A stretch of DNA of 33,145 nt from a virus (taxonomy: Duplodnaviria; Heunggongvirae; Uroviricota; Caudoviricetes), in the IMG/VR virus record IMGVR_UViG_2534681702_000003, positions 1 through 33,145 of that record; one strand, given 5' to 3'. The notes below the pieces were generated by a model, which was not told the origin of the DNA, searched no databases, and saw nothing but the letters and a program-made list of their open reading frames with translations. Positions 15,099 to 16,478 of the stretch are shown here, piece by piece (within the stretch, counting starts at the first letter, position 1; every line of letters starts with the position of its first letter). A program made the translations under genes and the position numbers.

Positions 15099-15278
15099 AT
15101 GACCGAAACCGCCAGAGTGGTGTTTAATGAATTAAGCATCACCGAACCGGCGACCGTCGGGGAAATTGCGCAGAATACTTACCTTTCACGCGAACGCTGC
15201 CAGTTAATACTGACTCAGCTTGTTATGGCGGGTCTGGCAGATTATCAGTTCGGTTGTTACAGACGCCTTCCGCAGTGA
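15099..15278 (+). CDS. Small hypothetical protein (59 aa), possible HTH
   Basis: ATG preceded by AGGA; below the size cut-off of the supplied ORF track, found by manual translation. Confidence 0.35.
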   Translation: MTETARVVFNELSITEPATVGEIAQNTYLSRERCQLILTQLVMAGLADYQFGCYRRLPQ

Positions 15279-15428
15279 AGGCTTTTTAATTTGTGGTAAT
15301 GGGCGGCTGGGGGGTGTTAGCGGCACCTGCCAGCCATCTGCTCATGCGTTGGGGTCACAAGCAAACCTCAGGCCCATCTGCTTTGCGCAAAAGCGGTATG
15401 AGCCTATCAGAGAAGTGCTTATTGATCT

Positions 15429-16478
15429 ATGATTAATACTGTAAAAATATCCAGTTGTGAGTTAATCAACGCTGATTGCCTGGAGTTTATCCAGACCTTA
15501 CCGGAAAATTCTGTCGATCTGATAGTCACAGACCCGCCATACTTTAAAGTGAAGCCCGAGGGCTGGGATAACCAGTGGGAGGGCGACGATGATTACCTGA
15601 AATGGCTGGACCAGTGTCTGGCGCAGTTCTGGCGGGTACTGAAGCCTACCGGAAGTCTTTACCTGTTCTGTGGTCATCGCCTGGCATCTGACACCGAAAT
15701 CATGATGCGTGAGCGCTTTAATGTGCTGAACCACATTATCTGGGCGAAGCCGTCCGGACGCTGGAACGGGTGCAATAAGGAAAGTCTGCGGGCGTATTTT
15801 CCGGCAACAGAGCGCATTCTGTTTGCAGAACATTATCAGGGACCGTATCGCCCGAAAGATGATGGCTATGTGGCACAGGGGCGCGAGCTAAAACAGCACG
15901 TCATGGCCCCGCTGATTTCTTACTTTCGTGATGCGCGTAAATCACTGGGAATAACGTCAAAACAGATAGCGGAAGCCACCGGAAAGAAAAACATGGCTTC
16001 GCACTGGTTTGGTACCAGTCAGTGGCAGTTACCGAACGAGGGTGATTACAACAAATTGCAGGCGTTGTTTGCGCGTGTTGCGGCAGAAAAACATCAGCGC
16101 GGGGAACTGGAAAAGCCACACCACCAGCTGGTCAGCACATACAGTGAGCTGAACCGGCAGTACACGGAACTGCTGAGTGAATATAAAAATTTGCGGCGGT
16201 ATTTCGGTGTGACGGCGCAGGTTCCGTACACCGATGTCTGGACGCATAAACCGGTGCAGTACTATCCAGGAAAACATCCGTGCGAAAAACCGGCAGAAAT
16301 GCTGCAGCAGATAATCAACGCGAGCAGTCGTCCGGGAGACCTGGTTGCAGATTTTTTTATGGGTTCAGGTTCAACGGTAAAAGCGGCGATGGCACTGGGG
16401 CGTTGTGCGATTGGTGTTGAGCTGGAGACAGGACGTTTTGAACAGACAGTCAGGGAAGTTCAGGATTTAATCGTTTGA
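15429..16478 (+). CDS. DNA methyltransferase, beta-class (N6-adenine or N4-cytosine), apparently orphan
   Basis: 349 aa; DPPY motif (VTDPPYF) near N-terminus and AdoMet motif FFMGSGST near C-terminus; no adjacent restriction gene. Confidence 0.85.
   Translation: MINTVKISSCELINADCLEFIQTLPENSVDLIVTDPPYFKVKPEGWDNQWEGDDDYLKWLDQCLAQFWRVLKPTGSLYLFCGHRLASDTEIMMRERFNVLNHIIWAKPSGRWNGCNKESLRAYFPATERILFAEHYQGPYRPKDDGYVAQGRELKQHVMAPLISYFRDARKSLGITSKQIAEATGKKNMASHWFGTSQWQLPNEGDYNKLQALFARVAAEKHQRGELEKPHHQLVSTYSELNRQYTELLSEYKNLRRYFGVTAQVPYTDVWTHKPVQYYPGKHPCEKPAEMLQQIINASSRPGDLVADFFMGSGSTVKAAMALGRCAIGVELETGRFEQTVREVQDLIV

Follow-up and report, generated by a model that had tools for sequence, protein, structure and literature searches.

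How does a lysogen live with a phage-encoded methylase that harms it? The question is raised by a locus that encodes a relative of M.EcoGII, an enzyme otherwise familiar as a commercial reagent and as a footprinting tool for chromatin and RNA. [quoted passage not shown] As far as its accessible parts go, the literature on M.EcoGII describes the gene as 'switched off' in lysogens without stating how. We analysed a 33,145-nt stretch of a Caudoviricetes genome (the window; IMG/VR record IMGVR_UViG_2534681702_000003), for which the original prediction had singled out a methylase gene and a short ORF upstream of it. Our analysis points to the late-operon setting of the gene, a conserved small neighbour (wH) and a putative structured mRNA leader as candidate parts of the answer (Table 1).

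Table 1 Features of the methylase locus in the window.
Feature	Position	Strand	Description
Q-like late antiterminator gene (DUF1133)	14295..14849	+	RefSeq start corresponds to 14307
Candidate PR'-like late promoter	14846..14874	+	TTGATT, 17 nt, TTCAAT; by eye, low confidence
Strong intrinsic terminator, tR'-like	14929..14957	+	12-bp stem + U7
wH small gene	15081..15278	+	65 codons in relatives; TAG 15093-15095 = codon 5; 59-aa ORF from Met7
P0 terminator-like hairpin	15265..15287	+	GCCUUC/GAAGGC then UUUUU; -8.9 kcal/mol
Putative structured methylase mRNA leader	15291..15428	+	Alignments, MFE, covariation, nucleotide identity
Predicted P1 helix	15299-15345	+	
Predicted competing helix Px	15337-15342 with 15360-15365	+	
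Predicted P2a helix	15352-15357 with 15423-15428	+	
Predicted P2b helix	15359-15363 with 15416-15420	+	
Predicted P3 helix	15370-15405	+	
Methylase gene	15429..16478	+	Intact 349-aa ATG ORF; very probably M.EcoGII-family beta-class N6-adenine DNA (and RNA) methyltransferase

The methylase and its family

In translation, the 349-aa protein carries DPPY at residues 35-38 and FMGSGST at residues 310-316, placing motif IV N-terminal to motif I. It matches PF01555 (N6_N4_Mtase) with an E value of 6.5e-45 and 154.2 bits against a cut-off of 26.7, in an alignment that covers residues 29-340 with the recognition domain between motifs IV and I. The best solved relatives, M.RsrI (8e-22), CcrM (1e-16), M.MboIIA (3e-15) and also DpnA, are all beta-class enzymes. 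Motif order, domain match and solved relatives thus bear out the predicted beta-class assignment. Over the full length, 316 of 350 positions are identical to M.EcoGII (~90%) and 329 are similar, with only two one-residue gaps, both of which fall on reading errors in the reference, machine-read from the supplement of PMC11551740. [quoted passage not shown] We consider the enzyme, on these alignments, very probably an M.EcoGII-type N6-adenine methylase.

The protein is already present in RefSeq as WP_001394189.1 ('DNA-methyltransferase'), and of the 5426 complete E. coli genomes, 2202 contain a match to its DNA segment, as do phiP27 and Stx2 phages; the homologue of phage 1720a-02, named by Murray et al., matches the window DNA at 88%. 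Judged by its sequence, the methylase is a common prophage gene of an already characterised family and ordinary in itself. No restriction endonuclease is annotated within ~15 kb of it in a near-identical genome (annotation across ~33 kb). Instead of the adjoining cognate endonuclease of a Type II restriction-modification system, its neighbours are Q, RusA, DUF968, tRNAs and lysis genes. The lambdoid late setting and the absence of a nuclease partner from the annotation uphold its description as an orphan, phage-borne amino-methyltransferase. A DUF968/HNHc_6 gene (12805-13932) was considered as a hidden nuclease partner and set aside; relatives carry it too, annotated merely as a DUF968 domain protein, and we take it for a common lambdoid gene, not a restriction-modification partner.

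The target specificity had been called unknown. The likely specificity is in fact known, because the enzyme shares ~90% full-length identity with M.EcoGII, which is proven to be non-specific for adenine. M.EcoGII, 349 aa long like M.EcoGI, methylates adenine regardless of sequence context, also methylates RNA and is fully active alone, as stated in the accessible text of PMC5778455. Table 3 of PMC6602927, a classification by REBASE similarity, predicts non-specificity for homologues at ~92-93% similarity, and reconstructed ancestors of the M.EcoGII clade have been described as largely non-sequence-specific. The window allele presumably shares the non-specific m6A activity and the silence in lysogens, by extrapolation from M.EcoGII and M.EcoGI. 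It could be argued that the enzyme is instead sequence-specific or N4-cytosine-specific and acts as an epigenetic regulator in the lysogen, since PF01555 spans both N6A and N4C enzymes and divergence from M.EcoGII is greatest in the target-recognition domain. We regard this as very improbable, given the 90% identity to an enzyme proven non-specific, the predicted or largely non-specific behaviour of both closer and more distant family members, and the silence of family members in lysogens. The standing epigenetic role that had been suggested is likewise unlikely for enzymes silent in the lysogen and harmful when constitutive. The anti-restriction role proposed alongside it is the accepted role of the M.EcoGII family and, by analogy, probably applies here.

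A conserved winged-helix gene upstream

The predicted 59-aa ORF exists, at 15099-15278 (+), but its length is owed to a nonsense SNP. In relatives, the gene (63-65 aa) starts 18 nt upstream, at ATG 15081 (MLKQQDM...). In the window, C->T at 15093 turns codon 5 from CAG into TAG, leaving a 59-aa ORF that begins at the conserved Met7. This change is private to the window: in about 190 related loci the N-terminus is open, with no stop at codon 5. By this comparison, the 59-aa length is an accident of the window and the ORF corresponds to the 3' part of a conserved gene of 63-65 aa, so that the wH protein of the window can at best be made from Met7. As for the ribosome-binding site ascribed to the ORF, AGGA alone is present, and its position a single base ahead of ATG 15099 is poor spacing. 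The gene had also been taken as unannotated, whereas RefSeq WP_000917744.1 (65 aa) and phiP27 L23 ('TrmB family transcriptional regulator') already annotate it.

Searches returned 259 wH homologues at E<=1e-3, and the AlphaFold (AF2) model reaches pLDDT 95 with the element order H-S-H-H-S-S, that is, the H1-S1-H2-H3-S2-S3 topology of a generic winged helix. With these homologues and this model, both ORFs are real, far beyond chance. The gene is conserved across Enterobacterales, which clearly settles in its favour the proposed check on conservation of the small ORF. It lies ahead of the methylase in 23/24 genomes, 74/74 metagenome loci and 98/107 viral contigs, and the one wH gene lacking a methylase is what a deletion has left. 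Helix 3, RCQLILTQLVMAGL, does not vary, even in proteins whose remaining sequence is 44-51% identical. The wH ORF is absent from 8 of the 107 leader loci described below, and a recognisable wH gene is also absent from many diverged clades.

Structure searches with wH found generic winged-helix proteins only, the best being ArsR, MarR and IclR repressors. The match to TrmB (PF01978), at 17.9 bits, stays below the Pfam cut-off of 25.6, NCBIfam models gave no match to the protein, and its family, phrog_331, is of unknown function. Two further leads were dropped: there is no wH-methylase fusion ('Rosetta stone') among 82 wH cluster representatives, all <=114 aa, and PNB-2 of phage PA8 shows no detectable relation to wH (BLASTP E 0.15). 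We read the wH protein as a dedicated partner of the methylase module. Its role could be that of an accessory or modulating methylase subunit, although we would call even this unlikely; binding of the leader RNA and some other function are each slightly less likely than that, and a DNA-binding transcription factor is slightly less likely again.

A conserved leader before the methylase start

The 150-nt spacer between wH and the methylase (15279-15428) is conserved as well as, or better than, both flanking genes. In the same genomes, nucleotide identity is 74-81% for the leader, 61-76% for wH and 67-74% for the methylase, and the mean column identity of the leader is 84% over 44 non-redundant copies. 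The methylase follows the leader in 106 of 107 viral-contig matches. The leader is unchanged in the 8 of these 107 loci that have no wH gene; the wH protein is therefore not required for leader conservation. A metagenome scan for methylases added little diversity among its closest 80 matches listed; leader diversity came from relatives of the Plesiomonas-type enzyme. The conserved leader seems not to have been described previously. This conserved non-coding spacer, the most unusual feature of the locus, was absent from the original prediction.

Rfam 15, including its SAM/SAH riboswitches, returned nothing meaningful for 15240-15460 (221 nt) at E<=10 and no leader match in a 3-kb scan or in 11 diverged loci. 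We also considered, and rejected, an additional protein-coding gene within the spacer: the 45/47-aa ORF at 15293/15299-15436 is not conserved, and most relatives stop after 7 codons. No Com-type (PF10122) zinc-ribbon ORF with CxxC...CxxC is found in 15279-15428. In a diverged clade, a Com-family zinc-ribbon ORF lies between leader and methylase (L295, PF10122, 34.3 bits); the Com-type ORFs of the diverged relatives L271 and L282 score below the PF10122 threshold.

Covariation within the leader

The minimum free energy of the leader has a z score of -3.2. In a MAFFT alignment made blind to structure, pairing is seen in 94.4% of cells, compared with 28-46% in slid registers, and double changes occur at 7 pairs versus 1.3 in shuffles. 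For 60 distinct leaders from diverged clades, in an alignment fitted to the model and hence favouring the fold, 91.5% pair versus 80.1% when shuffled. In these model-fitted leaders, compensatory changes occur at 27 of 38 pairs, against 0/500 shuffles. Many G-U pairs fit the + strand only; at two positions, for example, 30 and 33 of the 60 sequences carry one. For Px, the paired fraction of cells is 92.4% and covariation scores 0.264 versus 0.069; one of its pairs occurs as four Watson-Crick or wobble types in 44/44 sequences by MI analysis. P1a and Px compete for the same bases. Most leader pairs are invariant within the window's own clade, and P2 is less clear in diverged clade B.

The leader thus has the compensatory changes, the strand specificity and the tie to one downstream gene of a generic structured leader. 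Covariation supports a predicted hairpin-rich fold that would pair the bases just before the methylase AUG, together with a competing helix. We find it rather probable that the leader is a functional RNA structure; that it gates translation of the methylase is a model we hold only tentatively.

Transcriptional context

The order Q-like gene, terminator, wH, methylase, tRNAs, holins, endolysin and terminase is that of a lambdoid late region. It recurs in phiP27, where stx2e comes after the tRNAs. The Q-like gene matches PF06576 (342 bits), PF06530 Phage_antitermQ (28.3 bits, cut-off 26) and phrog_753 'anti-termination protein Q-like' (E 8e-78). A consensus scan found no sigma-70-like sites in 14200-17300. 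The PR' candidate sits just after Q and ~50-75 nt before the strong terminator, a placement that fits, with low confidence, the lambdoid PR'-tR' layout. Constitutive transcription from PR' ends at tR' in Stx-phage lysogens (Sy et al. 2020, PMC7547250). The window terminator has a folding energy of -17.2 kcal/mol (z -6.1 versus shuffles). An isrK-like Rfam match at 14883-14956 is weak, its 21.6 bits lying far below the threshold of 50.

At the second hairpin, P0, the wH stop codon (15276-15278) spans the loop and the first stem pair. By inspection, a crude automatic terminator score being confounded by extra pairs, other genera retain the P0 stem in altered sequence, and loci that lack the wH ORF have it too; the U-run of P0 is weak in many relatives. 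It is quite likely that the methylase is expressed late and under Q control.

A model for silencing

We propose that the methylase would hypermethylate replicating phage DNA late in lytic growth, so that progeny may escape many host restriction enzymes, as family literature suggests. Such methylation harms a living host, and the gene must therefore stay off in the lysogen. From the anatomy of the locus, silencing may involve up to three layers. The outermost would be the Q-like gene and the strong terminator; since the methylase lies downstream of both, only Q-modified polymerase should reach it. The terminator-like P0 hairpin on the wH stop codon could act as the next. The third would be the ~135-nt leader fold, in which GGGUCA is predicted to pair, as P2a, with UGAUCU, the bases touching the AUG; the methylase start has no other Shine-Dalgarno sequence. 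The covariation-supported Px would break this closure, and the leader can be read as a two-state translational gate. As a whole, an M.EcoGII-type anti-restriction module of the lambdoid late operon, silenced by terminators and a translational gate, appears to us a likely account.

A further-reaching proposal, for which we would claim somewhat less than even chances, is that 15291-15428 represents a new class of cis-regulatory RNA with two states (P1a+P2 versus Px), dedicated to M.EcoGII-type genes. Its range would be Enterobacterales and more distant phages, and it would hold off translation of a host-toxic enzyme until a late-lytic signal, for which the wH partner, a Com-like protein, the arriving ribosome or a small ligand are candidates. 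A corollary would be that wH is an integral partner of the enzyme, left out of every published characterisation of M.EcoGII.

Other explanations for wH and the spacer

The two conserved elements might divide their tasks differently, wH being a methylase subunit that changes what gets methylated and the leader setting only the ratio or timing of the two proteins. The pair would then behave differently in vivo from M.EcoGII on its own, for which the 'non-specific' activity was measured. Near-obligate synteny in all three locus sets, the deletion remnant as the only methylase-less wH gene and an invariant helix 3 in an otherwise divergent protein favour this reading, and M.EcoGII methylates RNA as well as DNA. 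There is also a precedent in phage PA8, where an MT-A70 methylase pairs 1:1 with the upstream-encoded PNB-2 and is redirected to 16S rRNA; its authors point out that M.EcoGV, a homologue, had been studied earlier without the partner (PMC10810198). M.EcoGII is nevertheless fully active alone, PNB-2 is not detectably related to wH and serves a methylase of a different family, and no fusion of wH with a methylase was seen among the cluster representatives. Moreover, recognisable wH is lacking in 8/107 loci and many diverged clades, and the window tolerates a nonsense codon in the gene. We therefore judge a subunit role with a leader of such limited function unlikely, though far from negligible.

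Alternatively, the spacer could be conserved as double-stranded DNA, an operator or promoter bound by wH in the manner of a C protein, in which compensatory changes merely keep dyad symmetry. In many copies P3c indeed forms a perfect 16-bp palindrome, GCTTTAGCGCTAAAGC, whose outer GCTT..AAGC does not change. Winged-helix proteins are usually DNA binders, the best structural matches of wH are repressors, and RefSeq carries the name of a TrmB-family regulator, although the TrmB match itself falls short of the Pfam cut-off. However, the frequent G-U pairs are meaningless in duplex DNA and fit the sense strand only, and dyad operators leave the covariation of the long-range P2 and Px, 60-70 nt apart, unexplained. 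With no promoter-like site found by scan, a wH that is not an Xre-type HTH as C proteins are, and a leader unchanged where wH is absent, such an operator is improbable. We think a short upstream ORF less probable still. Here ribosomes starting at AUG 15299 would melt P1, Px would form and the methylase start would open by translational coupling. An AUG (GUG in some copies) occupies this position in 60/60 distinct leaders, ribosomes would come from the wH stop codon 21 nt upstream, and P1a and Px share the competing bases. Most copies of the window clade read MGGWWVL-stop, and the window and phiP27 have 45 codons whose TAA (15434-15436) overlaps the methylase AUG (AUGAUUAA). The presence of the AUG is explained just as well by its place in the 5' strand of P1a, and the ORF varies from 3 to 45 codons, encodes no conserved peptide, has no Shine-Dalgarno sequence and leaves the persistence of the leader where no wH ORF ends nearby unaccounted for.

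For the question of silencing, the anatomy offers concrete, mutable elements: two terminators, the predicted start-pairing leader, the competing helix and the near-obligate wH neighbour. Leader and wH may explain the silencing of a toxic methylase whose surroundings are widespread, the window-related DNA of the 2202 E. coli genomes often lying just upstream of stx genes. Should wH alter substrate choice, as PNB-2 does for another Stx-phage methylase, the isolated enzyme may not show the natural activity of its family. A leader that proved to be a true switch would constitute a new family of RNA and, next to Mu com-mom, give phages a second way of controlling promiscuous DNA modification. If neither holds, the locus is one more copy of a known prophage methylase.

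Comparison with known systems

In Type II restriction-modification, C proteins are Xre-type HTH dimers that bind C-boxes and time a nuclease. The window locus resembles them in encoding a small, predicted nucleic-acid-binding protein just upstream of a modification gene, and differs in having no nuclease, a winged-helix fold and no C-box-like promoter found. The closest counterparts are M.EcoGII and M.EcoGI of E. coli O104:H4 C227-11 (Murray et al. 2018, PMC5778455), of the same family, length, motif order and prophage setting, from which the window allele is set apart by the substitutions in the target-recognition domain that were counted against M.EcoGII. In its accessible text, that study examined the flanks only for phage genes, concluded that the genes are transcriptionally silent in lysogens and mentions neither an upstream small gene nor a conserved leader.

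The pair of M.EcoPA8orf6770P and PNB-2 (Gong et al. 2023, PMC10810198) likewise combines an adenine methylase of a Stx-type prophage with a small winged-HTH protein encoded immediately upstream, which is co-transcribed there. Its methylase is an MT-A70 enzyme (DPPW) in a different part of the phage genome, its partner has 143 aa and no detectable similarity to the 65-aa wH, and a complex is known for the PA8 pair. With the lambdoid PR'-tR'-Q arrangement of stx2 and the StxS RNA (PMC7547250), the locus shares the position of the methylase after a Q-family gene and a strong terminator and before tRNAs and lysis genes. In the window, however, Q is DUF1133-type, the promoter is only a candidate, and a second hairpin and a long, predicted structured leader intervene.

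A precedent is offered by Mu com-mom and by FluMu com with the non-specific adenine methylase hin1523 (Drozdz et al. 2012, PMC3299994), in which a late, host-toxic, broad-spectrum DNA-modifying enzyme protects phage DNA. There, initiation of translation is governed by mRNA structure together with a small phage protein; for the window, such control is predicted. The enzymes differ, hin1523-type methylases being alpha-class and Mom not a methylase. In place of a Com zinc-ribbon ORF, the window has a winged-helix gene for its small partner, located ahead of the leader. A Com-family ORF nevertheless accompanies diverged members of the window's own methylase family.

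The methylase and its prophage setting

The window, from an ETEC-type E. coli host, is a lambdoid prophage. Its gene order is integrase, exonuclease, dicB, repressor region, hokD, DUF968, RusA, a Q-like gene and a region comprising a small winged-helix gene (wH) and a methylase gene, followed by lysis, terminase and then head/tail genes. Two genomes, NZ_LR882997.1 and NZ_CP025856.1, are nearly identical to the window. In NZ_LR882997.1, an IS66-family insertion follows the lysis genes (19696-22311 in the copy L003, versus window ~18515 onward) in an otherwise identical prophage; it is absent from the window and from the related locus L001.

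The 349-aa methylase ORF was found exactly as originally predicted. The beta-class motif order also stood, with DPPY at residues 35-38, FMGSGST at residues 310-316 and a PF01555 match of 154 bits, and the closest solved relatives are beta-class enzymes. As further predicted, no restriction endonuclease partner was detected among the neighbouring genes by Pfam scan or in the annotation of a near-identical genome. Of 5426 complete E. coli genomes, 2202 contain a match to the DNA of 14850-16520; phiP27 (90.7%) and numerous Stx2 phages, phage 1720a-02 among them, match it too. According to Murray et al. (PMC5778455), M.EcoGII is a beta-class methylase of 349 aa, encoded in a prophage, that modifies adenine whatever the context, in RNA as well as in DNA; they note "a very similar MTase" for phage 1720a-02. 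The window methylase is identical at 316 of 350 positions to an M.EcoGII reference (GenBank EGT69837.1) obtained by machine reading of supplementary material to the SUPREM paper (PMC11551740), with a few obvious reading errors. Homologues ~92-93% similar are tabulated as predicted non-specific, in a table classified by REBASE similarity (PMC6602927), and the clade's reconstructed ancestors are described as largely non-sequence-specific (PMC11551740). The earlier view that target specificity is unknown is therefore out of date. We strongly infer that the methylase is non-specific for sequence, and stop at that strength because its predicted recognition domain (residues 160-237) is ~83% identical to that of M.EcoGII (manual count). 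The methylase is an ordinary prophage gene of an already characterised kind. Overall, the original observation is confirmed in part, and its interpretation has partial support.

Features of the wH-methylase region and its flanks
Feature	Position	Strand	Remark
Q-like gene (DUF1133)	14295-14849		
Strong terminator	14929-14957	+	separates Q-like gene from wH-methylase module
59-aa ORF (tail of wH)	15099-15278	+	
Leader	15291-15428		
P0 hairpin	at wH stop codon		followed by U5 in window
P1			long hairpin 3' of invariant AAUGGGCGG
P2 closing helix	15352-15357 with 15423-15428		GGGUCA with UGAUCU, abutting methylase AUG; plus AAGCA with UGCUU (window pairs)
P3			inner domain of leader
Px	15337-15342 with 15360-15365		covariation in blind alignment
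Methylase ORF	15429-16478	+	
tRNA-Met (anticodon CAT), ARAGORN	16528-16603		tRNA-Ile (ileZ) in RefSeq and phiP27 equivalent
tRNA-like match, sub-threshold	16611-16684		23.7 bits versus 29; between two called tRNAs
74-aa ORF	16800-17024		without Pfam match; pseudogene missing N-terminus in relatives' annotation

Several flanking features were also recorded. The prophage carries two distinct Q-type antiterminator genes, annotated as "antiterminator Q family protein" (~9892-10416) and DUF1133, with two minus-strand genes and hokD between them; this arrangement points to late control of mosaic or composite make-up. A stretch ending at the strong terminator (14883-14956) is weakly similar to isrK, a Salmonella Gifsy-1 sRNA family (21.6 bits versus a gathering score of 50), and by analogy with lambda 6S RNA or StxS may be the prophage's short transcript from the late promoter PR' to the terminator tR'. 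On the other side of the methylase gene, the tRNA-Ile annotation would fit a lysidine-modified CAT anticodon. In Stx phages, argN lies between ileZ and argO, and the tRNA-like match may be a decayed third tRNA. The 74-aa ORF fills the tRNA-holin slot, where phiP27 has stx2e.

A conserved winged-helix gene accompanies the methylase

The 59-aa ORF was likewise confirmed, but it is not unannotated as had been claimed: it belongs to a conserved 65-aa gene, present in RefSeq as WP_000917744.1 and in phiP27 as L23, "TrmB family transcriptional regulator". The TrmB match of the wH protein is under the Pfam threshold. In relatives, wH starts at the ATG equivalent to 15081 (MLKQQDMTE...). Only two positions across 9000-18500 separate the window from the two genomes closest to it (L001 and NZ_LR882997.1), both C->T in the window: 11297, giving V179I in a minus-strand DUF6731 gene, and 15093, turning wH codon 5 into TAG. 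Because the six N-terminal codons are open throughout ~190 related loci, with varying amino acids, the comparison favours the upstream ATG as the true start and the window allele as a private nonsense mutation. Re-initiation could occur at the conserved Met7, two codons past the TAG. AlphaFold predicts a minimal winged helix (pLDDT 95), and the residues missing from the window allele fall outside the modelled fold.

The family, phrog_331 (labelled "unknown function"), has 259 members at E<=1e-3 in Escherichia, Salmonella, Klebsiella, Citrobacter, Enterobacter, Buttiauxella, Pantoea and other genera. It is narrow, with 82 clusters at 50% identity, all <=114 aa, among 1.84 billion representatives. 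The methylase follows wH in 23 of 24 species-representative genomes, the exception (L020) being a deletion remnant with a decaying leader and no methylase. Counted from the methylase side, wH lies upstream in 74/74 metagenome loci; among 107 viral-contig loci found via the leader, 98 have both genes, 8 have leader and methylase without wH, and 1 is a false positive. Upstream of the methylase in more distant clades there is often a small winged-helix-like ORF that has diverged differently; its Pfam matches, to winged-helix families, are all below threshold.

The leader has two mutually exclusive predicted folds

The wH-methylase gap is 147-154 nt in all genera compared and has no reading frame conserved across relatives. 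Window spacer identity to the Salmonella, Buttiauxella, Mixta and Plesiomonas copies is 74-81%, that of wH 61-76% and that of the methylase gene 67-74%. The spacer folding energy is -73.8 kcal/mol (z -3.2). The P0 stem is kept elsewhere with quite different sequences, and P0 is found even without the wH ORF; the invariant AAUGGGCGG comes after it. The leader occurs once in the window and, within the collections searched, only upstream of the M.EcoGII-type methylase family; it has no Rfam match. An invariant AUG at its 5' end opens a mini-ORF (15299-15436 in the window) reading MGGWWVL-stop in most relatives; in the window and phiP27 it has 45 codons, and its TAA end overlaps the methylase AUG (AUGAUUAA).

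In a MAFFT alignment of 44 non-redundant leader copies built without structure (the blind alignment), 94.4% of cells pair, compared with 28-46% in slid registers, and double changes occur at 7 pairs versus 1.3 in shuffles. With the covariance model R1, the leader was recognised ahead of diverged methylases in 73 matches, of which 60 are distinct. In the R1 alignment, which is fitted to the model and leans towards the fold, 91.5% of cells pair versus 80.1% in shuffles, and compensatory changes occur in 27 of 38 pairs, with 0/500 shuffles as high. As G-U pairs are frequent, the predicted structure fits the + strand only, as RNA or single-stranded DNA.

The strongest single covariation in the blind alignment falls outside P1, P2 and P3 and defines the alternative helix Px, one pair of which appears as C-G, A-U, U-A or U-G across 44/44 sequences. 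Overall, 92.4% of Px cells pair and the covariation score is 0.264 versus 0.069 (also examined on a wider set). Px has bases in common with P1a and P2b, and the default fold and Px are therefore mutually exclusive. Judged by sequence, what rises above the routine at this locus is the conserved leader with two putative, covariation-supported exclusive folds and a near-obligate small partner, neither of which is described in Rfam or the literature searched.

Proposed control and comparison with known systems

Murray et al. describe M.EcoGII-type enzymes as depositing m6A non-specifically, as toxic and as silent in lysogens (PMC5778455). PR' is constitutive yet terminated in lysogens (PMC7547250), and both Mu mom and the non-specific methylase of FluMu are toxic late functions whose translation is controlled through Com and mRNA structure (PMC3299994). 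For the present locus, the analysis establishes the enzyme family, the gene order, the strong terminator and the leader's conservation and covariation, whereas we infer regulation from such comparisons and from sequence. Q-modified polymerase alone would reach the methylase, P0 would form a second barrier, and the default leader fold would conceal the methylase start region. UGAUC, ahead of the methylase AUG, is complementary to GAUCA at the 16S rRNA 3' end, and no other Shine-Dalgarno sequence is present. GGUCA would serve as an anti-Shine-Dalgarno mimic, and Px formation would open the structure.

Diverged loci vary in this region. In L271, L273, L275, L282, L291 and L295 (~1320-1480 each), a 38-42-aa CxxC...CxxC ORF lies between leader core and methylase, and a separate hairpin holds the GGAGG of the methylase in copies of the L271 type. 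In another clade (L279, L280, L290, L294 and L296; ~1330-1440 each), the leader is replaced by a different conserved sequence, GAUGCCUUGAGUACCUGAGACCCA ... GGAGAGGAAGCA, which has no Rfam match. In some loci (L235, L242; ~670-965), the gene before the terminator-leader-methylase unit is DinI-like by eye (MRVEVLF...WLPE). The zinc-ribbon ORF of L295 scores 34 bits against the Mu Com family, the L271 and L282 copies being under threshold; its presence between leader core and methylase links the methylase family to control of the com-mom kind.

The wH protein would be a modulator and not a requirement, because loci lacking wH keep the leader unchanged and M.EcoGII works alone. It may bind the leader RNA, regulate through DNA binding or partner the methylase. 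The last has a precedent, although without homology to the wH protein, in phage PA8, whose PNB-2 protein joins a methylase in a 1:1 complex and retargets it to 16S rRNA (PMC10810198); that methylase is of the MT-A70 type, whereas the one in the window is of the M.EcoGII type.
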